From sequence record NC_024142.2: a stretch of DNA of 64,000 nucleotides; one strand, 5' to 3'. A program made the translations under genes and the position numbers. Source of the stretch: Escherichia phage Bp4. Under the pieces are notes generated by a model. It did no database searches and was not told the origin of the DNA. It saw nothing but the letters and a program-made list of their open reading frames with translations. Shown piece after piece: positions 3,997 to 64,000 of this stretch (positions are counted from its first letter, which is position 1; each line of letters begins with the position of its first letter).

Positions 3997-4483
3997 AGGT
4001 TGGCCTTATCTTCTGGTGGTGGTCCTAGGGGCCACCATTTACTTTTGGGGTAATTCCAATGGGCAGTCTACTGTTCAAAAGAAGTGGGATGATCAAAAGG
4101 TTGAAGATCAAAAGGCAATGCAAAAACTACAGGACAAATACAATGCTCTCCAAAGAAACCATAGTTATGAAGTCGGGTTACTCACTTCCCGGTTGCAGAC
4201 GGCTGAGAGTAATTACGCAAGCGAGCTTGCTCGCGTTAGCAGTGATTATGACAGCCGGATGCAACAGTCTGAAAGACGAGCATCGGTATATAAACGTCAA
4301 GCCGAAGCCGGAACCTTTGAGTGCAGAAGTCTTGCAAGCCATGCAGCCAGACTCGACAACAGTCTTGAAGAAGGCAGACGTTTGGTTGAAGAACTCCGGG
4401 CAACTGTTAGACTCCGTGACAGCCAACTAATTGAGTTGGGTAAACAGATTCAGGCTGATCGTAAACTTTTTGAACAGGAATAA
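3956..4483 (+). CDS. i-spanin (Rz-like)
   Basis: N-terminal TM helix ([16 protein letters not shown]) followed by a charged coiled-coil domain; lies immediately after endolysin. Likely start is ATG at 3977. Confidence 0.6.
4167..4430 (+). CDS. o-spanin (Rz1-like) lipoprotein embedded in +1 frame of Rz
   Basis: ORF fully inside the Rz gene in another frame; signal-like [12 protein letters not shown] with Cys, then proline-rich KPKPEP. Start chosen at internal ATG of ORF track 4059..4430. Confidence 0.45.
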   Translation: MKSGYSLPGCRRLRVITQASLLALAVIMTAGCNSLKDEHRYINVKPKPEPLSAEVLQAMQPDSTTVLKKADVWLKNSGQLLDSVTAN

Positions 4484-19300: not shown

Positions 19301-22300
19301 ATTCTTAATAAGAATGGTGACCGTAGAGAAAGCCCTTGGTTGTTTGCTGATGGTACTGTGGTTGGTTCTAATGGCGACCATATCAGCCTGTCCGACGTAT
19401 TTGGGCATGATGGTTATCGTGATATGTCTCTGGATACTGGTGCTATTCGCTCTACCTTCTATAAAGGTAGTGAGCAACCATTTGTATCTCTGCAACTGTT
19501 TGATAATCAGAAACTGACTGCTGAACAATTCAATACTGTTCAATCTTTCGTTGAAGCAAACAATGCACTGATTCAGGTTGGTGTAGATACGTCTGGGCGT
19601 AATACCAATAATGTTGAGAAGGAAGAAGTATCACTAGCTCAACTGAAAGCAGACTATACCGTCGGTGGTAAACCTCTATCGGAAATGGAAACAGTGTTCC
19701 CTGTTTATAACAATGACAAGACACCGAACCAGTTCATTAAATCATTCTCTCTTCCAGAAGAACCTAAGTCTCGTACCATTGGTTCCGAATCTCCTTTGAC
19801 TGATGTTAAGAAAGCACTGTCTTCTGCTGCTCGCTTTGAAGCATTTACTCAAAAAGAAAATAACGCTCTCACAAGTGATGTGATTAAGCGTTACCAGGAC
19901 TTATTTGAGTTTGGTGAAACTCTGAAGACTACTCTGTCTGACCGTCTGGCTAAGTTCCTTGCTAACAAGAACGTTGGTAAACGTTTTGCGGAAGGTACTG
20001 AGGCTAACCGTTGGGTAGGTGGTAAGTTACTTAACATCGTAGAGAAAGATGGTGACACCTTTAAGTTCAATGACCAGCTATTAGAAACTGCTGTACTTGC
20101 TGGTCTGCAATGGCGATTGACTGCTACACAGAATGCTGCTGTTAAAGACATGAAAGACGTAGCTGCTATTACTGGTGTGGAAGCATCTCTGCTACCAGAA
20201 GGTATTCTGGCTGACTTCGAGAATGCTCAGACCCTGGTTGAAGCTACTAACTCACTAGCTCAAAAGATTGAATCCTATTGGGGTTTGAATCGTAATCCTA
20301 ATGCACCTTTGGGGTATACCAAGGGTATCCCAATGGCAATGGCTACAGAGATTCTGTCTTCCCTTATTGAGATGGGTGAAGTTAAAGAGTCCATGTTAGA
20401 TGTGTCTGAGATTGACCCAGAATCTAATAAGACTGTTGGTCTGTATACCATTGAGAAGCTGGATGATAACGATGCCATTAATAAATTCCCTACTGCTATT
20501 GAGGAAACTGTCCTTTTAGAACCAGTAGAGAAATTGTATCTGGGTGATGACATTCCTTCCGTGGCTCAAACTCAGTTACGTAACCCGGCTGTTAAGAATA
20601 CCCCGGAACAGAAAGCTGCTCTCAAAGCAGAACAAGCTACTGAGTTTCGTGTACATATGCCGATGGTTAATTTCTATGAAGCATTGGGTCGTGACAACAT
20701 TCTGGAGTTAATGGGTGCTGGTGCTCTTAATCCAGAATTGCTGAATGTGAATACTGCTAAGTCTCTGGAAGGTAAAAACCTGTCCGTGTCCATGGCGTAT
20801 GATTCCTTGTTTGGTGTAATCAATCAAATTAAGGAACAGGAGAATGGACTGGATACACCTATTCACTATGGCTACAACATGACCCGTGTAGGTCGTATGC
20901 AGATGCTTGGTAAGAACAACCCACAGTCCAGCAAACTGGTACGTGAAGCAATCTTACCAACCTTCTCTACCATCGACTTGAGTAATGAAAACAGTCAAAC
21001 GTTCTCTGACTTCCAGTTAGGTCTGGCTCAGGCATTGGGCATCAAAGTTCATAAAATGTCCCGTGAAGTTATGTCGGATGAGCTGACTAAAGCTCTGGAA
21101 GGTAAATTGAAACCTGCCGTTGATATGATGGTCGAGTTTGATAAGTCTGGTCACTTACCTGCTGATGCAGTGGATATTCTGAAGACTTCCTTGGGGAATG
21201 ATAAATCATTCGTAGCTCTTATGGCCCTGATGGAATATGCCCGTTACCTGAATAGTGATGATCGTGCCAACTTTAATACCCCACTGTACGTTGAAGCCGA
21301 TGGTGTAACCAATGGACCAATTAACGCAATGGTATTAATGACTGGTGGTAAGTTTACTTCAGACTGGATTAAGAATACTGCTAAGGGTGGTTTGTTCTTT
21401 GGTAAAGCTGGCAAGACTATGAACGAACACCATTCGCACGAGGATAGTGTTGACCTGTATGAAGCATCCACTAATAGTCTGCAACAGGCACTGAATGAAT
21501 TACGTAATAATTACCGTAACAACGTTCCTGTTACGAATCAGATGAAGCATCTTCAGAAGTTAATGGACCTGTTCATTAAAGACTTCAATCTTAATGAAGA
21601 TGGTACTCTGGACCTGAAACGTGGTATCGCTAAAAACCCACTGACCATTACCATCTATGGTTCTGGTGCTCGTGGTATTGCTGGCAAAATGGTAAGTGCA
21701 ATTACTGATACCATCTACGAACGCTTCAGTGACGTTCTACAAGCCCGTGCTGCTGACCCTAGCATTTCCCCAGCTATGGCTATGTTTGGTAAGGAGGCTG
21801 CGTCTGAGGCTGATGCTCAGGCTATGCTGGATACTTTCCTTACTTCTATGGAAGCACTAACTGGTAATGTTCCGGTTATGCGTAAAGGTGAGTTGTCTAT
21901 TCAGCAGGTAGATGGTGCTCTGACTGGTAAGTTAGACCCTCAGAAGTTTACTGTATCCGGTAATGCTCTGAAGAACTTACAAGAGAACATGCTTCATCTG
22001 TTCGTTGAACCAATGCGTACTGGTATCCGAAATACCGTGGGTGAAGGTCTGATGTACTCTACTGAGAACTTGCAGAAAGCTACCCAGATTCAATCTCTGG
22101 TTCTGCAAGACATGTTCCAGCAACGTGTTCAGGAGAAACTGGCAGAAAAAGAAAAAGACCCAACATGGAAGAAGGGTGATTTCTTAACACAGAAAGAACT
22201 GAATGAAATCCAGGCTTCATTATCTCCACTGGCTCCAATGATTGAGACTGGTTCACAGACTTTCTACATTGCTGGTAGTGAGAATACTGATGTTGCTAAC

Positions 22301-25300
22301 CAAGTATTGGCTACCAACTTAGATGACCGTATGCGTGTGCCAATGAGCATCTATGCTCCTTCACAGGCAGGTGTAGCAGGTATTCCATTTATGACCATCG
22401 GTACAGGTGATGGCATGATGATGCAGACCCTTTCTACTATGAAAGGTGCTCCGAAGAATACCCTGAAAATCTTTGATGGTATGAACATTGGTATTAATGA
22501 CATTACTGATGCAAGCCGTAAAGCTAATGAGGCTGTATATACTTCCTGGCAGGGTAACCCTATCAAGAATGTTTATGACTCCTTTGCTAAGTTCATGAAG
22601 AACGTAGACTTCAGCAAACTGTCTGATGAAACCAAACAAGCTATCGCTAAATCTGCACTGGAATACGACCAACGTGAGGGTGCTACTGATGACCTGTTAC
22701 GTGTTGGTGCTGAACAGATTGAACGTAATCTGCGTAACATTGCTCTGGGTGTGGATATTCGTCATAAGGTAATGGACCAGGTACAGGTCACTGTTGACCA
22801 GATGGCTGCTGTTGGTGCTCCTTATGTGAACAACGGTAAAATCTCTCTGGAAGGTCTGACTGTAGACCAGCAAGTAGCTAAGCTGAACGAACTGTTTGAT
22901 GCTGAATTAAACAAGCGTCGTGATGCAGTACGTGCTGCTAAAGCAGAACCAGTGAAAGAAGTGCCAGCAATGGAACAGGTCGGTCGTGTACTGAAGTCTG
23001 GTGTACGTCTGCTGTCTAATGCTGCCATTACTAAACTGGCTAAAGAGATGTCCCCTGAACAACAAGCAGTACTGAAAGAAATACAGAAATCTCTTGCTGC
23101 TAAAGACTATAAGGTTGTTTATGGTACGCCTTCTCAACTGGATGCCTATGCTATTGAGAAGAACATTACTCGTCCAGCACCGGAAGATATTGAAGCTGCT
23201 GAAGCAGGTAATGCATATGGCTGGACTAACTTTGAAGATAAAACCATCTACTTAGTTACCCCTTCCTTAGAGACTCTGGTTCATGAATTGGTACATGCCT
23301 CTACTTTTGAATCTGTACTAGCTCACTACGAGGGTACTCCTAACGAAGCAGTCCAGAATATTGAAGACCTGATGAACCAGTTCCGTGCTCTTGATGTTAA
23401 GAATGAATCTCCGGCAGTACGTGAAGCATATGCCGATGCACTCAATACCATTAATGGCCACTTGTCCAATGGCTTTATTGAACCAGCAATGGCTAAAGCT
23501 GCTGCACTGAATGAGTACATGGCTTGGGGTTTAACTAACCGTGAACTTATAAGTAAGCAGAAGAAAACCACTGCACTTAAAACTATGGTTCAGGCTGTAT
23601 ATGAAGCAATCAAACGTCTGGTATTCGGACGTAAGAAAGCTCCTGCTAATGCAGATGATATGTTCTCTGGCTTACTGTTTAACTCTGCTGTAGTAATGCG
23701 TGGGCAGGCTCCTACTGCTGCTGTAGCCAAAGATACTACCTTGTTCCATAACAAAGCATACGGTGACAATACTCGTCTGGAAGAGCTAGGGAAAACCTTC
23801 GATAAGCTGATTACTAACTACATTGGTTCAGAACCAGTACAGCAAGTAATTCGTAAAGGTAAGTTCTCTGATGCAGTAGTAAAAGCAACTAAAGTAACTC
23901 GTGATGTTCAGGCTCATGGCTTCACCATGAATATGCAGGAACAGCGTCTCTTCACTAACATTGTTGCTGCACTAGCTACTGAGGCTGCTATTAACCCTGC
24001 TGCTATGGCTCGTGCACAGGAATACTACACGCATGTTACTAAGAACCTGACTGTTGAAGCGTTCATGGCTGACCCGGATAGTACTAACCCTGCTGACCGT
24101 TACTATGCACAGCAGAAGTTCGATACCATCATGGGTGCTAATAACATTGAGTTTGATGCACAGGGTCGTTCTTCCTTACTACCTACCTTTGTTGGTCTGG
24201 TAATGGTAAGTGAAGAAGTACGTAAGGTGCTGGCTGATATTTCTGTTATGAAAGCAGATAAAAAATCTGGCAATACTGTTGATGCAATGCTGACTAACAT
24301 CGGTACTGCTGCAATGGCTAGTCTGAATGCTCGTGTAGCAGGTGATACTAAAGCCACTAACGTACAGGAAGGTATGGATGCACTGGCTCAGACAATCATG
24401 CAGACCAGTCTTAACGCAGAATCCTTCTATGATTCCGTTGCTACTCCTACCGGTAATGCTATCGACCGTGCTAACCAGTATTTGGTGGACTCTATTGATG
24501 CATTGTCTACCCGTGCTTTAGAAGGTGCTCGTGAAGTTGCAGCTAATACCAAGAATCCATTGGTCAAAGGTGCTGCTCATGCTGCACAACTGGTAGCTGC
24601 TATTGCTACAGAGAAGAATGGTGCAATCGTAGCCGAAGGTGTTATGGCTGCAATGAACCAGGGTAAAGTATGGCAACCTTTCCATGACCTGGTTAATGAC
24701 ATAATTGGACGTACTAAGAGCAATGCTTCTGTATATGATTTGATTAAAGCAGTACGAGCACAAGTGCAGGCTGACCGTCAACAGTTCCGTGAACACTTGC
24801 CTACCACTATCGCATCCAAGTTCAGCCGTAAACTGACTAATGATGAGTGGAAAGCAATGCATACCGGTATGGGTAAAACTGACTTAGCTGTTCTGCGTGA
24901 CACTATGTCTTTGGATGAAATCCGTGACCTGCTGACTGACCAGAAGAATGTTGACCGTGAGGTTAATAAACTGGAAGCAGATTTGCAGAAACAAGCAGGA
25001 CGTAACTGGCCCCTGATTAACCGTAAATCTAAGCAACTGGCTCAGTATATGATTAACGGTACAGTCGGTAATAACCTGCTGCGTAATGCTACTGCAATTT
25101 CTCGTTTACTGGGTGAACGTAAGACTACACGTTCTGTTGTAGATGTAGCTCAGCTGGATAAACTGATTACCCTGTATGCACTGGAAGCAATGAGTAAGAC
25201 TGACCGTGAGGTGTTATCTTCACTGGCTCAGACAGAAGTTGAAGGCATGGACTTTGCTACTTCTTACCTGGTTGGTCAGCGTAAAGACGAAATGGCTAAA

Positions 25301-27085
25301 GCCAAGTCTGATAGCCGTGCAACCTTGAACCAGTACAAAGGATACATCCCAACTGAGAACAAACAGGGTGTTAACCTGATTGTTGCTGAAGATAATCAGT
25401 TTGCTGATTTGATTGAGAAATCCTATGTACGTCTTGGTACTTATCAGGGTAGCTCTGCTAACCGGGGTCCAGCACGTAGTTACTACTTTGCACCGGTACA
25501 GGCACAGGCTCCGTTCTCACAAGGTATCCTACAGAACGTTCGAAATACTGCTGGTGGTGTAGACCTTGGTACAGGCTTTACGATGGGAACCATGGTAGCT
25601 GGTCGTATTACTGACAAGCCTTCCGTAGACCGTATCACTAAAGCACTGGCTCGTGGTGAACGTGGCAATGAACCACTGCTGCCTGTATATGATGCTAATG
25701 GTAATGTAGTTGCTTATGAGCAATCTATTGACCCTAACATGCTGAAGCACATTGAGGGTGAGAATCATCTTGCTCGTGCAATCGGTGTATGGCGTGGTCG
25801 TCAGGTGGAAGAAGCTAAGGCTCAGCGTTTCAACGATATGCTAATTGAGAACCTGCATAGCATGTATGAGAACGACATTAAGATGTCTGCTTCTAATAAG
25901 TCCCAGTACGTTAACCTTCTTGGTTCTAAACTGGACCCAGTAACTGCCGATGCCCTTAAGCTGATGAACAGTGAAACTCGTCAGAAAGCAGAAAGTCTCT
26001 TTGGTCCAGGTGAATTGTGGGTGCGTCGTGACATGCTTAATGATGCTCTGGGTTATCGTGCAGCTTCTGTAGGAGATGCCTGGTCTGGTAATTCTCGTTG
26101 GTCACCAGAAACACTGGATACCTTCAAGAAAGCTATGTTGGGTGTATTCGGCAACCGTGCCTATAAGTATGTAATGGGTGGTGAGAACCTGGTTCAGAAC
26201 TTAGTTAAAGAAGCTAAGACCCTGATTGTAGTTAAGTCAGTAGTTGTACCTGCTGTTAACTTCCTGGCTAACCTTTACCAGATGGTTGCTCGTGGTGTAC
26301 CTGTTAAGAACATTGCTAAGAGCATCCCACAAAAAACTGCTGAGATTAACCAGTATCTGAAATCTCGTCTGCGTCAGGTAGATGCAGAAGCAGAATTACG
26401 TGCAGCTACTAACCCGAACCAGATTCGTAAACTCAAGGCTGAGATTCAGTCCATCTCTGATAGCCATAAACGTTTGAGTATCTGGCCTCTGTTGGAAGCT
26501 GGTGAGTTCTCTTCAATTGCAGATGCTGGTATTGGCCGTGATGACATCCTGATTACTGAAGGTAAACTCCACGAATACATGGAAAAGCTGGCTGATAAGC
26601 TGCCTAAGTCTGTTCGTAACGCAGGTCGCTATGCACTTATCACTAAGGATACTGCTCTCTTCCAGGGTATTCAGAAGACGGTTGAGTACTCTGACTTTAT
26701 TGCTAAAGCAATCATCTATGATGAACTGACTCAGCGTAAAGGTAAGACTCGTGAAGAAGCACTGGGGCGTGTAACGGAAGAGTTCATTAACTATGACCGT
26801 CTGCCTGGTCGATTCCGTGGGTATATGGAAAGTGTTGGTTTGATGTGGTTCTACAACTTTAAGATTCGTTCTGCAAAAGTTGCAGTGTCCATGATTCGTA
26901 ATAACCCAGTACATGCTGCTATGGCTATGTTGGCTCCAACCCCTACCATGTTTGGTAACGTTGGTCTTCCTATTCAGGACAACATCTTTAGTATTGCTGC
27001 ACAAGGCAATCTTGGTTACTCCTTTGGTTTCGGTCAAGGCTTACGTGCCCACAACCTGAACCCTTGGCTCAACCTTACTAACTAA
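16355..27085 (+). CDS. giant virion-encapsidated RNA polymerase (N4 gp50-like vRNAP)
   Basis: Single uninterrupted 3576-aa ORF (10.7 kb). This size is a hallmark of N4-like phages. Last gene of the late operon, followed by a strong terminator. Confidence 0.85.
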   Translation: MNRKHAMSTFDRLAGFADSITNAKQVDVSTATSQKQAAQGQSPFQLTPENAYNLQTGRVGNLGIGAFEPGSLQADFTQASPLEIINKYGNEQGLQILNSRANAADVVRQDLSKQRTNAEAFGDTLSGVGLGVANTLGGIAALGTGLVNDNAGASIASGLDWLNKGVHNLQSDALNARRNVVQNQNVISAQENEKLYKQDIAKGESELVASLSRIGRDAYDSVANTLSNDMAATDGLAEGVGSFFTGGPLIRGVSALGKVMVGGDKAVKGITLAAELGYRPARIAQTAGRVAAPAIAIGGMEAGGAYQQTANEIMEMPFSELAAKSPVYQQHIKDGLSPEEARRQTASETGITAAGLTAPVAALTAPLVSKFELNPLKVGSLAGAGSNMLRETVEEGIQSGTSQFAQNKAIQGNVDAERDLLKGVGEQTGLGALYGFGSAGVAQAPGATVKAAGAAVGPAVRTTLAGASLAGKALAKVASPITNILVQRGEEVAKRNEQASPVSDATVNAAAQEATAQAEQAQATVQEAVDAMDISPEEKAAATQYAADLTQAMKFDPVELEQTNPAIREAVSGSTNRVEAIQKMADLVNTAEDPNVQMEAAIQMYDNIMSMDSFINRDPGALANLEQGSPAAAIVDQFSGLMANVQNTPKVLRAFRAIHSMIQEQAEAGKLKATEEANQAQANNIAMAADVSPEVLDADSVNMVLKHASEGKITLGNRQRAALQSAAALLQGAREFDAKAEELGLRPQDIVSKQIKTDESRSNEGQYSALQHAKRIRSAYNSGNFDLASAYLSDFMKFAQHMQNKVGALNEHLISGNADKNKSVHYQALSPSREWVRSRTGLGVNPYDTKSVKFAQQVALEAKTVADIANALATAYPELNVSHVKVTSLDSRLNKPAAQVVKEFRQGGLDATQSQQTNEPVNQVDETPALVQEDTTTVQPKDKLVVENKTAPTKETSPKAEEVSTTESERDAYVKENTISQEILNKNGDRRESPWLFADGTVVGSNGDHISLSDVFGHDGYRDMSLDTGAIRSTFYKGSEQPFVSLQLFDNQKLTAEQFNTVQSFVEANNALIQVGVDTSGRNTNNVEKEEVSLAQLKADYTVGGKPLSEMETVFPVYNNDKTPNQFIKSFSLPEEPKSRTIGSESPLTDVKKALSSAARFEAFTQKENNALTSDVIKRYQDLFEFGETLKTTLSDRLAKFLANKNVGKRFAEGTEANRWVGGKLLNIVEKDGDTFKFNDQLLETAVLAGLQWRLTATQNAAVKDMKDVAAITGVEASLLPEGILADFENAQTLVEATNSLAQKIESYWGLNRNPNAPLGYTKGIPMAMATEILSSLIEMGEVKESMLDVSEIDPESNKTVGLYTIEKLDDNDAINKFPTAIEETVLLEPVEKLYLGDDIPSVAQTQLRNPAVKNTPEQKAALKAEQATEFRVHMPMVNFYEALGRDNILELMGAGALNPELLNVNTAKSLEGKNLSVSMAYDSLFGVINQIKEQENGLDTPIHYGYNMTRVGRMQMLGKNNPQSSKLVREAILPTFSTIDLSNENSQTFSDFQLGLAQALGIKVHKMSREVMSDELTKALEGKLKPAVDMMVEFDKSGHLPADAVDILKTSLGNDKSFVALMALMEYARYLNSDDRANFNTPLYVEADGVTNGPINAMVLMTGGKFTSDWIKNTAKGGLFFGKAGKTMNEHHSHEDSVDLYEASTNSLQQALNELRNNYRNNVPVTNQMKHLQKLMDLFIKDFNLNEDGTLDLKRGIAKNPLTITIYGSGARGIAGKMVSAITDTIYERFSDVLQARAADPSISPAMAMFGKEAASEADAQAMLDTFLTSMEALTGNVPVMRKGELSIQQVDGALTGKLDPQKFTVSGNALKNLQENMLHLFVEPMRTGIRNTVGEGLMYSTENLQKATQIQSLVLQDMFQQRVQEKLAEKEKDPTWKKGDFLTQKELNEIQASLSPLAPMIETGSQTFYIAGSENTDVANQVLATNLDDRMRVPMSIYAPSQAGVAGIPFMTIGTGDGMMMQTLSTMKGAPKNTLKIFDGMNIGINDITDASRKANEAVYTSWQGNPIKNVYDSFAKFMKNVDFSKLSDETKQAIAKSALEYDQREGATDDLLRVGAEQIERNLRNIALGVDIRHKVMDQVQVTVDQMAAVGAPYVNNGKISLEGLTVDQQVAKLNELFDAELNKRRDAVRAAKAEPVKEVPAMEQVGRVLKSGVRLLSNAAITKLAKEMSPEQQAVLKEIQKSLAAKDYKVVYGTPSQLDAYAIEKNITRPAPEDIEAAEAGNAYGWTNFEDKTIYLVTPSLETLVHELVHASTFESVLAHYEGTPNEAVQNIEDLMNQFRALDVKNESPAVREAYADALNTINGHLSNGFIEPAMAKAAALNEYMAWGLTNRELISKQKKTTALKTMVQAVYEAIKRLVFGRKKAPANADDMFSGLLFNSAVVMRGQAPTAAVAKDTTLFHNKAYGDNTRLEELGKTFDKLITNYIGSEPVQQVIRKGKFSDAVVKATKVTRDVQAHGFTMNMQEQRLFTNIVAALATEAAINPAAMARAQEYYTHVTKNLTVEAFMADPDSTNPADRYYAQQKFDTIMGANNIEFDAQGRSSLLPTFVGLVMVSEEVRKVLADISVMKADKKSGNTVDAMLTNIGTAAMASLNARVAGDTKATNVQEGMDALAQTIMQTSLNAESFYDSVATPTGNAIDRANQYLVDSIDALSTRALEGAREVAANTKNPLVKGAAHAAQLVAAIATEKNGAIVAEGVMAAMNQGKVWQPFHDLVNDIIGRTKSNASVYDLIKAVRAQVQADRQQFREHLPTTIASKFSRKLTNDEWKAMHTGMGKTDLAVLRDTMSLDEIRDLLTDQKNVDREVNKLEADLQKQAGRNWPLINRKSKQLAQYMINGTVGNNLLRNATAISRLLGERKTTRSVVDVAQLDKLITLYALEAMSKTDREVLSSLAQTEVEGMDFATSYLVGQRKDEMAKAKSDSRATLNQYKGYIPTENKQGVNLIVAEDNQFADLIEKSYVRLGTYQGSSANRGPARSYYFAPVQAQAPFSQGILQNVRNTAGGVDLGTGFTMGTMVAGRITDKPSVDRITKALARGERGNEPLLPVYDANGNVVAYEQSIDPNMLKHIEGENHLARAIGVWRGRQVEEAKAQRFNDMLIENLHSMYENDIKMSASNKSQYVNLLGSKLDPVTADALKLMNSETRQKAESLFGPGELWVRRDMLNDALGYRAASVGDAWSGNSRWSPETLDTFKKAMLGVFGNRAYKYVMGGENLVQNLVKEAKTLIVVKSVVVPAVNFLANLYQMVARGVPVKNIAKSIPQKTAEINQYLKSRLRQVDAEAELRAATNPNQIRKLKAEIQSISDSHKRLSIWPLLEAGEFSSIADAGIGRDDILITEGKLHEYMEKLADKLPKSVRNAGRYALITKDTALFQGIQKTVEYSDFIAKAIIYDELTQRKGKTREEALGRVTEEFINYDRLPGRFRGYMESVGLMWFYNFKIRSAKVAVSMIRNNPVHAAMAMLAPTPTMFGNVGLPIQDNIFSIAAQGNLGYSFGFGQGLRAHNLNPWLNLTN

Positions 27086-55844: not shown

Positions 55845-56723
55845 TTATTCTGCAACAGTAACAGGGATAGTTACATCGACCGTACCATTGGTAACTACTA
55901 CAGAAGTAGCTTCACCAGCAGCCACTGGTTTAACTGTCAGTACGTTACCAGCAATGGTAGCCGTAGCACGAGCAGAATCTGGAGCAGTCTTGATAGACAA
56001 AGTACCAGCAGATGAACCAACGGGCATAGCAACAATTGTTACGGTCTTACCAGCAGCAAGATCATCAGCAACAGACAGAGCCAGTGAAGCAGGAGTAGCT
56101 ACCAGTGAACTTGCTTCGTAATAGCCTACAGCTAATAGTGATTCATCCTCTACCGTGGTTCCATTAGCATCAGTAACAATCACTTTGTAAGTACCAGCAG
56201 AAGTAGCTGTTACGTCATTAAGAGTCAGTGTTGCAGTAGCAGCGGATTCGTTCTCACCTGAATCAATATCAGCGAATGCTGCTCCAGCAGTATCAGCTTT
56301 GAATTGCCATTTATAAGTAAATGGTGCTTTCCCACCTGCTACATCAACGTGCCAGTTGATGTCTTCACCTTCGATAGTAGAGACTACACGAGGCAGTTTG
56401 GTAGCAATAGTCAGTCGTGGGGTAGCTTTCATATCAATAGAGATAGACTGCATATCCACAATGTTGTTAGGCCAGAAGCCTGCTTTACTTGGGTCTTTAG
56501 CAGAACGTTTATACAGCAGGTCACGAACACCATGATAGATAACTAAGCTATCTGGGTAAGTGGCATCTGGGTGTTCAAAAGTTCCTACTTCTATGGAACC
56601 ACCTGGGATAGAACCACTGGCATCCAGTACAGTTGCAACATTAGTGGTTTTGTTAAAACCTACTTTCAAAGTTGGCATATCAATTTCCTCATAAGTAAAT
56701 AGCAGAGTTAGTATACATGACAT
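55845..56723 (-). CDS. Ig-like domain protein (capsid decoration protein candidate, N4 gp17-like by position)
   Basis: Thr/Ala/Val-rich beta-strand repeats (TYKVIVTDANGTTVE, TVTIVAMPVGSSAGT); located right after the RNAP II genes. Confidence 0.45.
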   Translation of the reverse strand: MSCILTLLFTYEEIDMPTLKVGFNKTTNVATVLDASGSIPGGSIEVGTFEHPDATYPDSLVIYHGVRDLLYKRSAKDPSKAGFWPNNIVDMQSISIDMKATPRLTIATKLPRVVSTIEGEDINWHVDVAGGKAPFTYKWQFKADTAGAAFADIDSGENESAATATLTLNDVTATSAGTYKVIVTDANGTTVEDESLLAVGYYEASSLVATPASLALSVADDLAAGKTVTIVAMPVGSSAGTLSIKTAPDSARATATIAGNVLTVKPVAAGEATSVVVTNGTVDVTIPVTVAE

Positions 56724-56727
56724 GTAA

Positions 56728-56756
56728 AAAATAAACCCTCCGTTAGGAGGGTTAGT
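56728..56756 (-). terminator. intrinsic terminator (minus-strand sense)
   Basis: Hairpin AACCCTCC-GTTA-GGAGGGTT followed on the minus strand by TATTTTTT. Confidence 0.5.
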
Positions 56757-56967
56757 TGTTTACACAGTAGATAGCAAAAGCTATCCATCCTGCCATTACA
56801 AAGCAGCCTAGTGAGTATGCTCCATAGTAGTAATAAGCAAACTTAGATTTGTGGGCATGAACTATTGTAGACAGAACCAGTACAGATAAAACTATCAGTA
56901 TTAACTGAGAGATTACTTCAAAAGGGATTAGCATAGTTGTTACCTCCAAGCAAAAAATATGCCTCAC
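56752..56967 (-). CDS. small membrane protein
   Basis: 71 aa, two hydrophobic helices. Confidence 0.4.
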   Translation of the reverse strand: MRHIFCLEVTTMLIPFEVISQLILIVLSVLVLSTIVHAHKSKFAYYYYGAYSLGCFVMAGWIAFAIYCVNN

Positions 56968-56991
56968 TCCCGAAGGAATGAGGCTAGTTTA

Positions 56992-58239
56992 TTAACTCAA
57001 CGCATAGTCTGTTTCAAGAATGTCCTGCCAGAGGCTGTCATCCAGCTTACCAGCAGAGAACTCTTGCCCCAGTACCTGAGACAGGATGAAGCCCAGTAGG
57101 TCACTCTTAGCAATATCAGACAGGATCTGATTGTACTGACGACGCAGGTCATTACCGTAGTTAGGATGGCAACGGAAGCAGTCATGTACAGTCATTACAG
57201 GGAATGGTTTCTTAGGCAGAGTGTCAATCATATCTGCTACTACCTGACGGTCTACATAAGCAATAGTACATGGGTCAAGATAGTCCAGGATGGATAAAGA
57301 TAAGAAGCCAGACTTCTCATAATGGCTCCATAGCTCTTGTACCTTCTCCAGATTACCTGCAATCTCCCCATATTCTGATGGACCTTCATCACAGAGTTCT
57401 CGCACAGCTTCCACTAAGTCACGGTCGAAGTTACAACGACGCAGCATCTCACGTACCACCATCCCATCAATAGAGTGGGTGATGTTAGCAGAGAGCATAC
57501 GAGTCTTCTCTTCAGTACCCTGAACCATACGAGTAATGTCGAACGGTTTGCCTAAGAAGTTAACAGTCTGTACTTCTGGAACCATGACCTTAATGACAGC
57601 GTGGAAGTTGTCAGGAAGTATCCATATGTAACGGTTGGCATCTGGATTACCACATTGCAGTAAGAACTTGTTCAATGCCCAAGGACCACTAGCAACAGTT
57701 TCCATTACATTCTCAAAAGTCTTGAGACGAATACCTTCACCGAATACTTCTTTAGGCTTGGCTTCTGAGCCGTAGAACGCAGTCATAACTGCCTGCTTAG
57801 TGTCACTACGTTTAATACGAGATGCTTCACCAAGGATGTCCAACATCTTGTGATAGATGACTGTATAAGCATCACGACGTAATGGCTTACCATTCTCACC
57901 CATGTAATTAACTACGTTACACAGTTCAGCAGCAGAGCGGTCACCCGTCAGACAAGCCAGTAATTGCAAGCCAGATGATGTAGCATCCAGAGCTACGGCA
58001 TAACCAATAGGCTTACCTGCTTTCATATCTTTCCATGCATTTACACCAGCATAGAACAGTGCAGAATCTTCAGCTTCATCTACCAGATTAAGCAGGTTAG
58101 CTTCGTTCTCATCGAACCAGGCAATACGCTCATCCCATGTCTTTTTATCCAGACCATAGTTATTGGCGATATCTACTTTCAGGTATTGTTTAGCGGTTAA
58201 CAGTTGCATTTTATGTTCCTTTTGCTTCTTGCTCCCCAC
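56992..58239 (-). CDS. phage RNA polymerase II large subunit (T7-like single-subunit RNAP catalytic half, N4 gp16-like)
   Basis: T7-like motifs: ALDATSSGLQLLA (motif A), RSDTKQAVMTAFYGS (motif B), TVHDCFRCH (motif C). Confidence 0.8.
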   Translation of the reverse strand: MGSKKQKEHKMQLLTAKQYLKVDIANNYGLDKKTWDERIAWFDENEANLLNLVDEAEDSALFYAGVNAWKDMKAGKPIGYAVALDATSSGLQLLACLTGDRSAAELCNVVNYMGENGKPLRRDAYTVIYHKMLDILGEASRIKRSDTKQAVMTAFYGSEAKPKEVFGEGIRLKTFENVMETVASGPWALNKFLLQCGNPDANRYIWILPDNFHAVIKVMVPEVQTVNFLGKPFDITRMVQGTEEKTRMLSANITHSIDGMVVREMLRRCNFDRDLVEAVRELCDEGPSEYGEIAGNLEKVQELWSHYEKSGFLSLSILDYLDPCTIAYVDRQVVADMIDTLPKKPFPVMTVHDCFRCHPNYGNDLRRQYNQILSDIAKSDLLGFILSQVLGQEFSAGKLDDSLWQDILETDYALS

Positions 58240-58415
58240 TATGGAGAGCCTGCTTATTGGATGGTTAGGCAGTTACTACGTCGGCAGATAGTTTATAAAT
58301 AATGGTTTTACTCTCAGGGTTTTGAAGCTTGTAAAGCTTCTCAAAGTATAAGCACTTCACATATGTACCTGAGTAGACACACTCTTCATTAACCCATAAT
58401 TCATAGGAGCCAATG

Positions 58416-59234
58416 TTAGTCTTCATTTACTAACTCCTTATCAGCGAACTCCAGTACAGCTTTGTTGTAGCTGGTTCCCTGATAGTTGATGTGGTAGCCA
58501 CAGGCATATGTACGCCCACGTTTGTCATATTTGTGAGCCAGTGAGAAGTTATTACCTTCCTTGGTCACTAACTCCATTACCTCTTTAGCTGTACGGCTGT
58601 ACTTTTCAAAGGCTTTAACACGTTTCTCATAGTCCTGACGGGTTTCACCTTCTTTGGGTTTATCCATGTTAGGACGAGAGTCTTTTACATAGTTAGCAAC
58701 GTCCCAGTTAATACAGAGACGTTGGTTATTCATACGGTTAATGTGGTCAAGACAGACATCCATTTCATGATGGTTCTTCTTGAGAATGATGCTACCCCTG
58801 CTTTCGTAGTAACCAGTATCACGGTTACATAGAACAGGCTTAGGAGCACTTACGATAGGCAATGGATACTGGAATGCTTCCAGTTCCATCTGTACATCTT
58901 CACTAATCTCATAAATAACACCGAACTTGTCGATGGTAGGGTCATAGTTGAAGCAGTCATTCTCTGCCATCTTATACAGACAGTCAGCGATGTACTGAGC
59001 ATCATCTGAGTGACTCATGAGAGAGCCAATCATAGTTTGGATGTCAGCACGTTTATGTAGGGCAATCTGCACCATTGCATCAATGAGCAGCTTATAATCA
59101 ATTTCTAAATAGGCAGCGAATGCCTTAAAGTCAATTTCTTCGGAGTCCTCGAATTCCTTCCTCATGCGAGGGAGTAATTGATTCTTGTTGAAAAGGATTT
59201 CAAGTTGCTTCTGATGTTCAATAGATGAGTACAT
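58416..59234 (-). CDS. phage RNA polymerase II small subunit (N-terminal half of split T7-like RNAP, N4 gp15-like)
   Basis: 272 aa directly upstream of the catalytic subunit; the split arrangement is characteristic of N4 RNAP II. Confidence 0.65.
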   Translation of the reverse strand: MYSSIEHQKQLEILFNKNQLLPRMRKEFEDSEEIDFKAFAAYLEIDYKLLIDAMVQIALHKRADIQTMIGSLMSHSDDAQYIADCLYKMAENDCFNYDPTIDKFGVIYEISEDVQMELEAFQYPLPIVSAPKPVLCNRDTGYYESRGSIILKKNHHEMDVCLDHINRMNNQRLCINWDVANYVKDSRPNMDKPKEGETRQDYEKRVKAFEKYSRTAKEVMELVTKEGNNFSLAHKYDKRGRTYACGYHINYQGTSYNKAVLEFADKELVNED

Positions 59235-59267
59235 CGCTTATTCTCCTAAATGTGATTAATAACCAAA

Positions 59268-59282
59268 AGCTGCGGAGCAGCT
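59268..59282 (-). promoter_or_regulatory. hairpin promoter candidate (N4 vRNAP-type), template-strand hairpin AGCTGC-GGA-GCAGCT
   Basis: 6-bp stem, 3-nt GGA loop on the plus (template) strand, about 35 nt upstream of the RNAP II small subunit start; shares the GCGGAGC core with two other hairpins. Confidence 0.45.
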
Positions 59283-59287
59283 ATTAC

Positions 59288-59548
59288 CTAACGCTTAGTC
59301 CAAAAGGCAATACGAATACTGTTCTCTTGACCAAGATAGTTAATACGTACATATAATCCATTACCATTAAATTCTTTTCTTTTTTCTTGATAAGGCCATA
59401 CCAGACTACGCATAGGTATATTAACAAAACCTGATATGTGACCTAACTTAGTACGACCTTTTAGTTCGTTTTGTAATGCACAATAGATATCATGTCGTGT
59501 AAGTGCTCTGGCTCTGACTTGAGCAGACCACAGTTCTTCATATGTCAT
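59288..59548 (-). CDS. hypothetical early protein
   Basis: 86-aa ORF. Confidence 0.4.
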   Translation of the reverse strand: MTYEELWSAQVRARALTRHDIYCALQNELKGRTKLGHISGFVNIPMRSLVWPYQEKRKEFNGNGLYVRINYLGQENSIRIAFWTKR

Positions 59549-59934
59549 GAGAAGGTTCCCCAGTAGATATAGTCATCTCCCAGAATAGGCTTCCAGGCTT
59601 CGTCAAACATGACATTGCCTGTAGCATTGGCAAACATAGGAGCAATATCTTCATCCTTATAACCAGCTAATCCACAACCAATACGTGTTACTTTAAAGTC
59701 CCACTCTGGGTGGGCTGCTGCGTATAGAATGAAGGATGCTACGAATGTCTTAATGTCCTTTAACGGCATAGTCTTGATTGACTGGTCTTTGGTTGGGATT
59801 GCATAGCTGCAACCATAATGGCCTACGCCCATACCCCAACGAGCACCATGCTTCTTATATGCAACTTTCGCTGCACCAGCGCCGTGACGTCCTGCTAAAT
59901 TACTTCCGAATACGAAGATTTCTTTCATTTGCAC
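59545..59934 (-). CDS. hypothetical protein with Gly-rich nucleotide-binding-like motif
   Basis: FVFGSNLAGRHGAGAAKVA and GCSYAIPTKD motifs; 129 aa. Confidence 0.4.
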   Translation of the reverse strand: MQMKEIFVFGSNLAGRHGAGAAKVAYKKHGARWGMGVGHYGCSYAIPTKDQSIKTMPLKDIKTFVASFILYAAAHPEWDFKVTRIGCGLAGYKDEDIAPMFANATGNVMFDEAWKPILGDDYIYWGTFS

Positions 59935-60105
59935 AATTTCCTGTTGTAGTTGTAAGCCTCTTGTTGAGTCATACTTGTATTAGCATGAGTTAGCTCCAAA
60001 TACGTCAGAGCATATTCATGTCACGCTGTTCCTTCTTGGTTCGGCAATGACCACATTTACCATCCCATTGGGATACATGGCCTTTACCACATTTGCATTG
60101 TTTGT

Positions 60106-60369
60106 TCATTTAAAAGTACTCCATGGTATGGACTCCAAGTAATTAATTTTGTAAATAATCTTACTTCTTATTTCTCCACCAACATCTTGTACATGGATTA
60201 GGTTTAACCTTTGTGCTTGGGTTATAGTAGCTGCAAGAGTTCTCCCCATAATATTTGATATTTCTATAAAAGATTTATTGGATTCTACTAGTATCTTTAA
60301 ATTAGTATTATCTAAGTTACTCCACTCTTTAGAATGATTTGCTGGCTTATCCATTAGGATTCTCCACAA
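60106..60369 (-). CDS. hypothetical early protein
   Basis: 87-aa ORF. Confidence 0.4.
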   Translation of the reverse strand: MWRILMDKPANHSKEWSNLDNTNLKILVESNKSFIEISNIMGRTLAATITQAQRLNLIHVQDVGGEIRSKIIYKINYLESIPWSTFK

Positions 60370-60727
60370 AATAGTTATACATAGCTTTTACTAGTTTCTC
60401 TTTAATAACCTCACCATGACAAGGTTTCGGATAACAGAAGCACTGTAAGGCTAACCCTTTTTCGTCAATGGCTTTATTACCCAGACGATTAAGTTCATCC
60501 AGTACAACTGGATTCTTTCTCATTATTTGCTCATTAAGCCATACTCGATACTTGGCTATAACCTGTTCTCTTGAACCGTCTTTACCAATAACGAATGGAT
60601 TGCCTAATGGTGAGCCACGTCCAATATACTCACCGGATTTACCGTGATGTTTATTAACAATGTTAATTGGACGGGCAGATACACCTAGTAAAGCATTGGT
60701 GTCATCACCTAAAGAGATAATCTTCAT
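60347..60727 (-). CDS. hypothetical protein (DUF4326-like motif pattern)
   Basis: GRGSPLGNPF and CFCYPKPCHGE motifs; 126 aa. Confidence 0.4.
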   Translation of the reverse strand: MKIISLGDDTNALLGVSARPINIVNKHHGKSGEYIGRGSPLGNPFVIGKDGSREQVIAKYRVWLNEQIMRKNPVVLDELNRLGNKAIDEKGLALQCFCYPKPCHGEVIKEKLVKAMYNYFVENPNG

Positions 60728-61038
60728 GGTTTAAGTACCTGGAATGGGAATACAGGACGTTTACTACGCCACTGGTTCATAGCTAATTCACTAGTTTCAG
60801 AACCATCATGTAAGTCATAGATAAATGAGATTACATAGTCTGGTTCTTCCGGGAAGTTCTCTATAGAGAACGGTAGACCTGATTCTTTAAGGATGGTAAC
60901 CAGTGGTGATTCAGCATTACAGTAAAGGGTAAACTCTTCATTGAATGCTTGGCTTGTCTGAGATACATAATCAATATTACGCATCATCTTATCTACATCA
61001 GTAAACGTAGAATCATGGATTACTAGAATAGTTTTCAT
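60724..61038 (-). CDS. hypothetical early protein
   Basis: 104-aa ORF; overlapping start/stop with neighbours. Confidence 0.4.
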   Translation of the reverse strand: MKTILVIHDSTFTDVDKMMRNIDYVSQTSQAFNEEFTLYCNAESPLVTILKESGLPFSIENFPEEPDYVISFIYDLHDGSETSELAMNQWRSKRPVFPFQVLKP

Positions 61039-61226
61039 ACTGGCTCCCTGCCTGTAAATGCTACTACTTTTCCTGACATATTCCGTAGGGTTACCTGTGC
61101 TGAGTTAACATCAGCAAATTGCTCTGCAACCCAGTTAAGCATCTCAGGGTCATTATTTAATTGTTTGTTAATCACAGTTTTACTGTCTGCTGTTACTAAA
61201 GTGATTTCATAATTTTCAATATTCAT
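61035..61226 (-). CDS. hypothetical small protein
   Basis: 63-aa ORF. Confidence 0.35.
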   Translation of the reverse strand: MNIENYEITLVTADSKTVINKQLNNDPEMLNWVAEQFADVNSAQVTLRNMSGKVVAFTGREPV

Positions 61227-61480
61227 GCTACTTTCTCCAGCGTTAGGTAAACGTTATTATTGACAATACTCAAATCACAAAAACCAATCTCTTCTTGTCT
61301 CCCAGAGGATACCCAGATATTGTTTTCTGTTAGCTTAGGTTTTTTAGAGAATCCTATTAGTGAGGTATTAGCACTCTTATATTGACGAGGTAGTAATGCT
61401 ATATACTTAACCCAGTGAGGCACTTGAATAGTATGCTTCATATATTCCACAGTCTTGCCTGTAGGATATGCAATAATCAT
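61223..61480 (-). CDS. hypothetical early protein
   Basis: 85-aa ORF. Confidence 0.4.
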   Translation of the reverse strand: MIIAYPTGKTVEYMKHTIQVPHWVKYIALLPRQYKSANTSLIGFSKKPKLTENNIWVSSGRQEEIGFCDLSIVNNNVYLTLEKVA

Positions 61481-61698
61481 TTCTGATACCCCTGTATATA
61501 GTTAATACGGCGAATACGTTGAGTAGATGCTTTAACAGCCATCTGTTGATTCTCTTCTTTATGCTGATTATTCAGCACCTTATCCCATTCTTTCTGATTC
61601 CGTTGTTTCTGTAATATACGACTACACTTCTTATGATTAGCAACTCCTCTTCCTTTATTGCAAATTGGGCAAATACCATAATTAGTGCTGAACAACAT
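61477..61698 (-). CDS. small zinc-ribbon-like protein
   Basis: CPICNKGRGVANHKKC Cys pattern; 73 aa. Confidence 0.4.
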   Translation of the reverse strand: MLFSTNYGICPICNKGRGVANHKKCSRILQKQRNQKEWDKVLNNQHKEENQQMAVKASTQRIRRINYIQGYQK

Positions 61699-61703
61699 TT
61701 TGT

Positions 61704-61934
61704 TTATTCCTTAGTAATGTGATTGGCAGTATAGAAGTCATTAATCTCTGATTGGGTAGTATCAGCATAACCGGATACACCGGTTTCTTTATTAACCCAT
61801 TTATCGAAGCACTCACTGTGTCCATGTGTACTAACTTTTACCCATGTACTGGTTCCAAAGAATGTTTTTTTCTCTACTTCTGCACCAATACCACGTTCAT
61901 TATCTGCAAAGCGTATTACCTTATATTTAGCCAT
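61704..61934 (-). CDS. hypothetical early protein
   Basis: 76-aa ORF. Confidence 0.4.
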   Translation of the reverse strand: MAKYKVIRFADNERGIGAEVEKKTFFGTSTWVKVSTHGHSECFDKWVNKETGVSGYADTTQSEINDFYTANHITKE

Positions 61935-62235
61935 TTAATGCCTCCATTAATATTTTACGAATAACGTTAACATCAGACTCTGTACCAATTAAGCCAACAG
62001 GCTTGCCTGTACTATCTGTTACAAAGGATGCAATCCTTTCCATCTCTGCTGTAATTAGTTTGTCCCCACTAATAAGACGATTACGGAGGTAAGCTTCATA
62101 AGCTACCTCTACATCTTCTACTGTGGTTCTTTCATTACGAGTGAATGGATTACTTAATTGAAAGGGTAAGTGGATACGGATATTCCTGTCAGCTATCTTA
62201 GCTGATTGAGGAAGTATACAAACAATTTCATTCAA
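61927..62235 (-). CDS. hypothetical early protein
   Basis: 102-aa ORF. Confidence 0.4.
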   Translation of the reverse strand: MNEIVCILPQSAKIADRNIRIHLPFQLSNPFTRNERTTVEDVEVAYEAYLRNRLISGDKLITAEMERIASFVTDSTGKPVGLIGTESDVNVIRKILMEALNG

Positions 62236-62426
62236 GGTTATTTCTCCTATTTAAATACATATCTAACTATTCAGGAATAAAAAATAGAAGCCCTCCTAAT
62301 GGAGGACTCCTAGTTACTTGATACATGAATGGTTGAAGGTAACAATCTTACGTACTGGTTCAGACGTCTGTTTCTTAGCAACCAGACGTTCTTTCATCTT
62401 TTGCACGTCTTCTCTGGTTCCCATGA

Positions 62427-62609
62427 TTAATGATTTACGCATGATTTAGTACTCCACATAAAGTTAAAAGGTTTATTCTTACGTACAATTCTTACAACCA
62501 TTTGATAGCCATTGAGTTGTACAACACCATAGTGTCGTTTCTGTACACCAGTGTGATACCTACGAAAGATACATTCTTCAATGGCATCATCTATGTTAGT
62601 GAATATCAC
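62427..62609 (-). CDS. hypothetical small protein
   Basis: 60-aa ORF. Confidence 0.3.
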   Translation of the reverse strand: MIFTNIDDAIEECIFRRYHTGVQKRHYGVVQLNGYQMVVRIVRKNKPFNFMWSTKSCVNH

Positions 62610-62794
62610 TGGTTCCTCTTTGCAAACTCTTCTGCTTGTTGCTTGTAGTACTGAGTCATTGCTTTCTTGTGTTTAATACTAGCAATGAGACACTCGATAG
62701 TAACGAATGGCAGTTTAGCAATAAGCAACCATTTATGACGTAACTTCCAACCCAGAAAGTAGAAGATTACACAGAAAGCGATGAAGTCTAACAT
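62606..62794 (-). CDS. small membrane protein
   Basis: 62 aa with hydrophobic helix. Confidence 0.35.
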   Translation of the reverse strand: MLDFIAFCVIFYFLGWKLRHKWLLIAKLPFVTIECLIASIKHKKAMTQYYKQQAEEFAKRNQ

Positions 62795-62896
62795 GGTTAA
62801 TTCCTCTTCTAATATAAATCTATATCTATCTGGTTACTGTTTCAGTACCCTTCGTCTAAAGATACTCAAAAAGTAGAAATAGCTTATCGTCTAGTT

Positions 62897-62926
62897 AAAA
62901 ATAAAAGACTCCCCGAAGGGAGTCTA
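62897..62926 (-). terminator. intrinsic terminator (minus-strand sense)
   Basis: Hairpin AGACTCCC-CGAA-GGGAGTCT followed on the minus strand by TTTTATTTTT. Confidence 0.55.
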
Positions 62927-62934
62927 TTGGTTGA

Positions 62935-63408
62935 TTAGAAAGTCAGTTTACGAGCATATTTATTCTCGTCTGCTGGGATGTCAGCAGCCTCTGCTTTCAC
63001 ACGACGAAGTTGAACTTGCAGGTTTATGATACCTTCTTCACCTGGTTCCAGGTTCTGAGCATACTCAATTAACTGTTCCAGCAAGTCGTTCTGTGCACAA
63101 CGCATAGCACGGAAGTCAGCATTGCTGCTGTTAGTAGGCAGCGGTTCCTGAGTATCCAGTGGAATACCAGTAGGCAGAGAGATGAATTTCTCATCATCAG
63201 AGCCTTCATTAGCTACATAACCAATGTTCAACCAGAACTGAGCTTTTGGTTTATCAGTTTTAGCAGTGGTAGCAGCAGCGTTAGATTGACCGAAAGTGAA
63301 TTTTTGAATAGCCATTTTGTACTCTCCAGATTTATGTGATTTACGGGTGAACTCGTCGGTGAGAACACCCAAACAAAGGGATAAAAGTTCAATGATTAGT
63401 GGATGCAT
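62935..63408 (-). CDS. hypothetical early protein
   Basis: 157-aa ORF starting about 15 nt downstream of a hairpin promoter candidate. Confidence 0.45.
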
Positions 63409-63421
63409 TTACATCATCCAT

Positions 63422-63438
63422 AAGACGCGGAGCGTCTT
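63422..63438 (-). promoter_or_regulatory. hairpin promoter candidate (N4 vRNAP-type), AAGACGC-GGA-GCGTCTT
   Basis: 7-bp stem with 3-nt GGA loop on the template (plus) strand, immediately upstream of the gene starting at 63408. Confidence 0.5.
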
Positions 63439-63533
63439 GGTTTTTAGAAGTAGAAGTAAAGTAGATAGTTATCTACTTTTGACTATCTATCTAATGTTCA
63501 AAACAGGAGACTCCGAAGAGCCTCCCAGGTGAC

Positions 63534-63857
63534 TTAGTCTTTAGTCAGGATGTCGATTACTTTGGAATATTCTGCGTTATAGATACGAGCGTTCTCTGAA
63601 TCCTTGCAGAATTCCTCGATACTTTTCTTACGCAGAGTCTCAGTCATAGCTGTTTCCTCTGCCAGTTTATTAACAAAGGTATGCATTTCTAATTTAGTAC
63701 GAATGGCTTGTTTCTCTGCCATAGTACTTACATATGAATTAAGCATACCTACTGCTTTAGTTGCTGTACCGAAGGTATCTGCAACAGTAGTAGCAGCTGA
63801 GTTAACAGTACCAAGTAAAGTTCCTGCGGTCATACGTACAGTAGCTTGAGTAGTCAT
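63534..63857 (-). CDS. hypothetical early protein
   Basis: 107-aa ORF, Ala/Thr-rich helical protein. Confidence 0.4.
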   Translation of the reverse strand: MTTQATVRMTAGTLLGTVNSAATTVADTFGTATKAVGMLNSYVSTMAEKQAIRTKLEMHTFVNKLAEETAMTETLRKKSIEEFCKDSENARIYNAEYSKVIDILTKD

Positions 63858-63899
63858 GATGATAGCTCCAATAGTTGATGATAGGACGACATGTCCATA

Positions 63900-63914
63900 A
63901 CATGCGGAGCATGT
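63900..63914 (-). promoter_or_regulatory. hairpin promoter candidate (N4 vRNAP-type), ACATGC-GGA-GCATGT
   Basis: 6-bp stem, GGA loop, same GCGGAGC core; about 45 nt upstream of the gene starting at 63857. Confidence 0.45.
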
Positions 63915-64000
63915 GTAACGTGTAAGGTGGGGTAGGGTAGTGGCTACACCGTCAACATACCGGGGGGGATGGTTGAGTGTAAGGGTGTAGCCCCAGCCAC

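Follow-up and report, generated by a model that had tools for sequence, protein, structure and literature searches.

The RNAPII genes and the hairpin upstream of them

In the window, by which the whole 64-kb stretch of DNA analysed is meant, the early genes occupy the - strand and include both genes of a split RNA polymerase (RNAPII). The small subunit is encoded by a 272-aa ORF (58416-59234, -), a homolog of N4 gp15/RNAP1 (65% identity to N4 gp15; 995 homologs), and the large subunit by an ORF at 56992-58209 (-), a homolog of N4 gp16/RNAP2 that is present as a CDS in GenBank and matches the Pfam family RNA_pol (PF00940, E = 6.7e-14). No Pfam match was obtained for the small subunit or for the adjacent small ORFs, and the small subunit was identified from its identity to N4 gp15 together with the names given in GenBank, where both ORFs are called RNAP subunits. 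Between the two genes the ORF list contains a 53-aa ORF (58265-58426, -) with no Pfam match and no assigned function. The content of this inter-subunit gap varies among the phages: in place of the 53-aa ORF, G7C has an HNH homing endonuclease gene (contig L085, 6085-6666), and N4 has nothing there. A strong terminator-like hairpin (56961-56984, -) with a 10-bp stem, a TTCG loop and a T6 tail is located 8 nt past the stop codon of the large-subunit gene.

The 272-aa ORF is separated from the next gene upstream, an 86-aa ORF (59288-59548, -), by a gap of 53 nt, which houses a short inverted repeat at 59268-59282. The + strand letters of the repeat, AGCTGCGGAGCAGCT, form a perfect 6-bp stem with the loop GGA (AGCTGC-GGA-GCAGCT), and 34 nt separate its near edge from the start codon (ATG) of the 272-aa ORF. 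Folded as single-stranded DNA, the hairpin reaches -5.7 kcal/mol (z = -2.98), a stability matched by 2 of 200 shuffles. The first-pass annotation had placed a hairpin with a GCGGAGC core at 59268-59282, about 35 nt upstream of the RNAPII small-subunit start, with the split RNAPII genes downstream of it. Direct reading of the 6-bp stem and the GGA loop bears out these coordinates, the measured distance agrees with the estimate, and the identity to gp15, the PF00940 match in the large ORF and the GenBank names are all in accord with the gene assignment.

As the early genes occupy the - strand of the window, the + strand, on which the hairpin is found, serves as their template, and the hairpin falls inside the first-injected leftmost ~10% of the genome. 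Judging from its fold, the shuffle statistics and a covariance model (see below), the element is a candidate core of a promoter for the virion RNA polymerase (vRNAP) and a putative ortholog of the early promoter P3 of phage N4. In this case the functional hairpin is presumably DNA of the template (+) strand, not an RNA structure.

The window corresponds, in reverse orientation, to the record MH669274.1 of Escherichia phage PD38 (N4-like; Schitoviridae, Enquatrovirinae, Gamaleyavirus), to which it is 99.93% identical; megablast of the region 56900-60000 returned this single record with 100% coverage and at least 99.9% identity. In the hairpin region the position in MH669274.1 equals 64001 minus the window position, and the equivalent of the hairpin is found at 4719-4733 of 72,213 bp, i.e., at 6.5% of the genome. 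Over the last 9 kb the two sequences differ by only six single-base gaps, which occur in runs of 2-7 bases and none of which is near the hairpin: relative to MH669274.1, the window is without one base at 60021, 58232, 56732, 55775, 55773 and 55413. The gap at 60021 lies inside a 61-aa CDS of PD38 (3891-4076), to which the ORF list of the window has no counterpart.

Copies of the hairpin in the window and in related phages

The bare heptamer GCGGAGC occurs three times in the 64-kb window against 2.15 occurrences expected, and 30 of 100 shuffles reach this number, so that the count is within chance. Because the bare count gave no significance, the heptamer was counted inside a stem of at least 5 bp, that is, as GCGGAGC with at least three further complementary pairs, and compared with shuffles preserving the dinucleotides. 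By this measure the three copies in the 64-kb window stand against a mean of 0.097, and none of 300 shuffles reaches three. The loop centres of the copies are at 59275, 63430 and 63907; all three are on the + strand, all are in gaps between genes, and all are no more than 4.7 kb away from the end of the window matching the left terminus of the genome, i.e., the first-injected end. A covariance model applied to both strands of the 64 kb recognized these three copies only (E = 3e-8 to 6e-6), the next match having E = 0.5. The model was built from 36 such hairpins, the three copies being part of them, and the informative part of this search is consequently the absence of extra copies. At the locus under study the full promoter match (41.1 bits, E = 3.6e-8; 33-mer alignment) extends over 59255-59287 (+), or from about +10 to -23 of the template strand, and takes in CC (+2/+1) as well as the A4 spacer (-1 to -4).

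The two sister hairpins would correspond to the other early promoters. The P2-type one (63422-63438, +; AAGACGC-GGA-GCGTCTT) has its predicted +1 at C63419, 11 nt before a gp2-like ORF, and the P1-type one (63900-63914, +; ACATGC-GGA-GCATGT) has its predicted +1 at C63896, upstream of a gp1-like ORF. Several side observations concern the P2-type site. The gp2-like ORF (62935-63408, -) comprises 157 aa in the window, while GenBank gives only 127 aa for PD38 (record 685-1065, 'RNAP1 subunit A'). The leader from the predicted P2 start at 63419 is 11 nt long and without a Shine-Dalgarno sequence; the same leader in N4 is 10 nt long. In the P2-type hairpins (window 63432-63449, +, and the P2-type sites of the relatives, contigs L005-L017) a conserved GGTTT(TT) follows on the template strand, and on account of this motif the P2-type sites score as terminator-like on the + strand (63421-63439 plus GTTTTTAGAA).

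The N4 genome (EF056009) has, in its first 10 kb, exactly three heptamers embedded in template-strand hairpins, with the loop centres at 96 (GCGAAGC), 565 and 4554. The third hairpin, with the sequence TTACCAAAAGCTGCGGAGCAGCT, precedes gp15/RNAP1 by 52 nt, and the 23-nt core (TTACCAAAAGCTGCGGAGCAGCT/AACCAAAAGCTGCGGAGCAGCT) is identical between the window and this N4 site upstream of gp15. Three early initiation sites (P1-P3) have been mapped in N4, in vivo as well as in vitro (PMC4496689), and the hairpin at 4554 was equated with P3 from the equal numbers of candidate hairpins (exactly three) and mapped promoters rather than from a printed coordinate. The number of early promoters is given in two ways in one publication (PMC13492108), which has three of them (P1-P3) in the introduction and 'four early promoters (P1-P4)' in the discussion; the first 10 kb of N4 show three hairpins.

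For a wider comparison, a profile of RNAPII small-subunit homologs led to 80 viral contigs, from which the 15 with a protein at least 65% identical (ECBP1, IME11, G7C, PhAPEC5, pSb-1, KP8 and N4 among them) were used along with the window. The GC-GGA-GC hairpin is present upstream of RNAP1, on the template strand, in all 16 of these Enquatrovirinae-like genomes. It occupies -38 to -52 relative to the start of RNAP1 in 12 of them (11 contigs and the window) and at -274 to -300 in the other four, where an ORF of 76-85 aa is inserted between the hairpin and RNAP1 (L006, 5723-5977; L010, 5748-5978; L011, 5745-5981; L017, i.e., KP8, 5724-5981). As far as sequence comparison goes, this arrangement shows that insertion of a new ORF does not displace the putative promoter from the operon head. 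Relatives carry 3 to 4 hairpin promoters each. In G7C (contig L007) a fourth template-strand hairpin, AACGC-GGA-GCGTT, lies 4756 nt upstream of RNAP1 and has G at +1, where C is otherwise invariant.

Alignment of the intergenic gaps revealed invariant islands, namely the heptamer, the two G that pair with CC(+1/+2), the Shine-Dalgarno block and the start codon ATG, next to a divergent end of the adjoining upstream gene. The CC at +1/+2 is found in 16 of 16 P3-type sites and in 46 of the 47 sites overall. Within the stem, positions -5, -6 and -7 vary by lineage (GCTGC, GGTGC, GCAGC), always with compensating partners, while the pairs -8:-14 and -9:-13 never change, the former being the same in all 36 sequences of the covariation alignment. 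These sequences had been chosen for having stems of 5 bp or more; in them both partners of -5:-17, -6:-16 and -7:-15 undergo change and no cell of these pairs is unpaired, in agreement with the rule that stem bases not contacted by vRNAP may vary so long as they pair. Altogether pairing holds in 90% of the cells (71% in shuffles), and covariation scores 0.488, compared with 0.120 for the shuffles, none of 500 shuffles attaining the observed score; since the sequences were picked by their stems, this test leans towards pairing. The non-circular figure is that at least three further stem pairs accompany 47 of the 48 template-strand heptamers of these early regions. The RNAP1 proteins of the same genomes are 65-74% identical, yet the functional bases of the hairpin are invariant and the changes in the stem are compensatory, which argues for purifying selection on the hairpin structure.

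In more distant Schitoviridae the covariance model gave 19 matches. Every one is on the template strand; 18 are upstream of RNAP1, the latter only far off, and none of the 19 lies directly 5' of RNAP1. Nor did a plain scan for hairpins in the 220 nt preceding RNAP1 give anything consistent in these phages. At this sensitivity, the layout with a promoter directly 5' of RNAP1 appears limited, by sequence, to the Enquatrovirus/Gamaleyavirus/KP8-like clade.

These data bear on the supposition that the element is a chance palindrome, or else a host sigma-70 or a middle (RNAPII) promoter unrelated to vRNAP. The bare heptamer count would be compatible with it, but the figures for stem-embedded heptamers and the 23-nt identity with N4 are not in its favour. 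A sigma-70-like site (-35/-10 hexamers with a spacing of 16-18 nt) was not found on the - strand of 59235-59290, and such matches are depleted in 56500-64000 as a whole (3 versus 22.2 +/- 5.0 in shuffles), which fits an early region not transcribed by the host RNAP. A search of 56000-64000 against Rfam gave no family match. The probability that we assign to this supposition is negligible: chance and a host or middle promoter are effectively refuted by the N4 identity, the 16/16 conservation and the statistics of the stem-embedded heptamer.

Another possibility is that the element serves, primarily or additionally, as an intrinsic terminator or attenuator of the early transcripts arriving from P1 and P2. 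Like Rho-independent terminators, it presents a hairpin followed by UUUU on the coding strand, where the RNA would fold as AGCUGC-UCC-GCAGCU and continue with UUUUGGUUAUU. This hairpin is present in the minimum-free-energy structure of the RNA and starts 5 nt past the stop codon that ends the 86-aa ORF upstream, and a simple terminator scan flags it at 59282-59268 (-), albeit as a weak one (6 pairs, including 4 GC pairs, a loop of 3 and the tail TTTGGTTATT). The U-run of the UUUUGG tail is, however, the mere complement of the promoter A4 spacer, and it varies in the orthologs (UUGUGG, UUUCGG, UUAAGG, UUUAGG), whereas the heptamer and CC(+1/+2) are invariant; in other words, the conserved features are those that vRNAP would read on the opposite strand. 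Furthermore, only four U follow the stem, which is short, while the clear terminators nearby have stems of 8-12 bp, tetraloops and T5-T7 tails, the 86 nt of RNA around it do not exceed their shuffles in stability (z = 0.09), and the P1 and P2 sister hairpins are without a U-run on the coding strand. We consider termination or attenuation quite improbable as the role of the element. As a conserved function, intrinsic termination was rejected because the U-run is not conserved, no conserved U-tract of about six residues or more being found.

A combined role, with the template DNA acting as the P3 promoter and the RNA from P1/P2 folding into a weak attenuator or a 3'-stabilising hairpin, is doubtful. 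If it were true, P3 would be the main determinant of the RNAPII dosage, which would be shielded from read-through arriving from upstream, and the A4 ruler of the promoter would double as a terminator U-tract in PD38, ECBP1, IME11, PhAPEC5, pSb-1 and N4.

Promoter determinants, predicted transcript and candidate polymerase

The requirements of N4 vRNAP for its promoters are known in detail. These promoters are conserved from -17 to +1 and contain a GC-rich heptamer centred at -11 with inverted repeats on either side; the enzyme specifically reads -11A/G, -10G, -8G and +1C, extrusion of the promoter needs a loop-closing G:C pair together with 5'G and 3'A in the loop, and four A residues from the stem to the start serve as a ruler (PMC4496689). 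The -8G of the stem contacts residue R904 in the specificity loop of vRNAP.

All the published determinants are present in the window, where the template strand reads 5'-CC AAAA GCTGC GGA GCAGC T-3'. The hairpin fits the rule of a 5-7-bp stem and a 3-nt loop, with the heptamer GCGGAGC centred at -11. Counted on the template (+) strand, +1 is C59264, and positions -1 to -4 are the AAAA at 59265-59268. The stem is formed by pairing of -4 to -9 with -13 to -18 and includes G59272 at -8 as well as the closing pair between C59273 (-9) and G59277 (-13). The loop, -10 to -12, consists of G59274 as the 5' base, the purine G59275 at the centre (-11) and A59276 as the 3' base.

By the N4 rule, which puts +1 at 11 nt from the loop centre (PMC4496689), initiation should occur at template C59264, giving a transcript on the - strand with 5' G. 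This position is 11 nt from G59275 and 8 nt from the -8G at 59272, with the AAAA spacer between the stem and the start. A start near 59255-59262 had been proposed in the first-pass annotation; in the light of the spacing rule, this range is 2-9 nt too far downstream. The predicted mRNA opens with GGUUAUUAAUCACAUUUAGGAGAAUAAGCG-AUG, its 30-nt leader beginning at 59264 and continuing, by direct reading of the sequence, through 59235-59263 (-). The leader contains the Shine-Dalgarno sequence AGGAG at 59243-59247, and this leader/SD block is kept in the alignment of the relatives. The strong terminator-like hairpin at 56984-56961 is the probable end of the P3 operon.

Transcripts of the RNAPII genes might, on the other hand, originate upstream, the hairpin being a genuine promoter-like sequence that is kept by descent and little used, with RNAPII expressed essentially by read-through from P1/P2. 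The genes from 62794 to 59288 are all on one strand and have no other hairpin promoter, which means that transcripts already cross this region and could run on into RNAP1. Against such an origin speak the invariance of the functional bases and the compensatory changes of the stem at the given divergence of RNAP1, the place at the operon head held by the hairpin in four genomes despite an inserted ORF, and the three initiation sites mapped in N4. Besides, two strong terminators, at 62925-62906 and 62312-62285, are located between P2 and the RNAPII region. A little-used relic promoter thus seems very unlikely to us, although read-through from P1/P2 could also supply RNAPII mRNA in addition to a working P3.

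The candidate polymerase for such a promoter is encoded in the same window. The vRNAP gene (16373-27085, +) specifies a protein of 3570 aa, counted from the first ATG, which is 66% identical to N4 vRNAP and 71% identical in the polymerase domain. Among the nine promoter-contact residues of the N4 enzyme named in PMC4496689 (numbering of the N4 mini-vRNAP), eight are identical here: K114, R119, W129, K268, K849, K850, D901 and R904. Residue K267 of the N4 mini-vRNAP, one of the two lysines that melt the base of the promoter stem, is replaced by N (residue 1358 of the ORF). From its sequence, the product of 16373-27085 is the enzyme expected to read the hairpin at 59268-59282.

Proposed role of the hairpin and comparison with known systems

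The N4 early circuit begins with the injected vRNAP, which reads hairpin promoters; RNAPII and gp1/gp2 are produced, and the middle genes follow. The early vRNAP promoters P1-P3 of N4 were reportedly the subject of studies by Haynes and Rothman-Denes in 1985 and by Glucksmann and colleagues in 1992.

Taken together, the data suggest, with a probability of about 0.9 in our estimation, that the hairpin at 59268-59282 is a single-stranded DNA promoter for the injected vRNAP and the ortholog of the N4 early promoter P3. The sequence, its fold and statistics, orthology, covariation and the conserved polymerase residues are established here. The proposal of the first-pass annotation that the RNAPII genes are controlled by the injected vRNAP thereby gains support at the level of sequence, from the agreement with all the N4 rules, the 23-nt identity with N4 and the occurrence in 16 of 16 relatives.

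As concerns the mechanism, extrusion of the hairpin, a requirement for SSB and initiation at 59264 in this phage are inferred from the biochemistry of N4. The genome's left end would enter the cell, where the host gyrase would supercoil the entering DNA, and the supercoiling would extrude the inverted repeat as a cruciform. E. coli SSB would then melt the non-template arm, and the template-strand hairpin would survive, being presumably of unusual stability owing to sheared pairing of G(-10) with A(-12) and to closure of the loop by C(-9):G(-13). vRNAP could recognize G(-11) and G(-10) of the loop and G(-8)/C(-9) of the stem and begin RNA synthesis at template C59264. The transcript would run from the 30-nt leader with AGGAG through the RNAPII small subunit, the 53-aa ORF and the RNAPII large subunit to the terminator at 56984-56961. 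In this way the middle-gene polymerase would gain a dedicated early promoter, besides any read-through from P1/P2.

The element, itself unannotated, would then be orthologous to a classic promoter that has been characterised by experiment, and hence of an already known kind. Its presence confirms that the early transcription circuit of N4 is intact in the G7C/PD38 coliphage group. The comparison also lends support to the published recognition rules, the contact bases being invariant and positions -5 to -7 covarying. The GenBank records of N4, G7C, PhAPEC7 and PD38 contain no annotation of vRNAP promoters, and for a promoter unannotated in these four records a precise start, window position 59264, can now be predicted. 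The main gain is a better annotation; no new question is raised.

The closest known counterpart is N4 P3. Both sites share the 23-nt core CCAAAAGCTGCGGAGCAGCT together with an identical flank, as well as the location on the template strand, the heptamer, the loop, -8G and +1C, and both are directly 5' of the gene for gp15 (RNAPII small subunit) or its homolog, approximately 4.6-4.7 kb from the left end. They differ in the length of the stem (7 bp in N4, 6 bp here), since the base past the 3' arm is not the same, and in the leader, which is 41 nt in N4 and 30 nt here, with the hairpin centre at -52 and -41, respectively. The N4 promoter has been characterised experimentally, while the copy in the window is predicted and unannotated in GenBank. 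As to the genes downstream, gp15 and gp16 are transcribed by the N4 vRNAP as early genes (PMC13434306).

In Klebsiella phage KP8 a putative promoter P4, AAGCAGCTCCGCTGCTTGTGGG, was proposed before the RNAP subunit genes (PMC6950046, Table 1). A full-text search for published occurrences of the hairpin sequence returned only this paper and one unrelated paper on humans. The KP8 site (contig L017, at -286) is in the orthologous spot, heading the RNAPII block, and shares the heptamer and the loop with the hairpin in the window. It is distinguished by T(-7)->A with a compensating partner, by the spacer CACA in place of AAAA, and by the 85-aa ORF inserted between the promoter and RNAP1.

The early promoters of the N4-like Pseudomonas phages LUZ7 and LIT1 are of the same general design, being template-strand DNA hairpins with a 3-nt loop that are served by an injected vRNAP and start preferentially with G; in contrast to the hairpin described here, their stems are of 4-5 bp, the start is 13-14 nt from the hairpin centre, and they precede genes 1, 12 and 13 (PMC3715699, PMC9163698).
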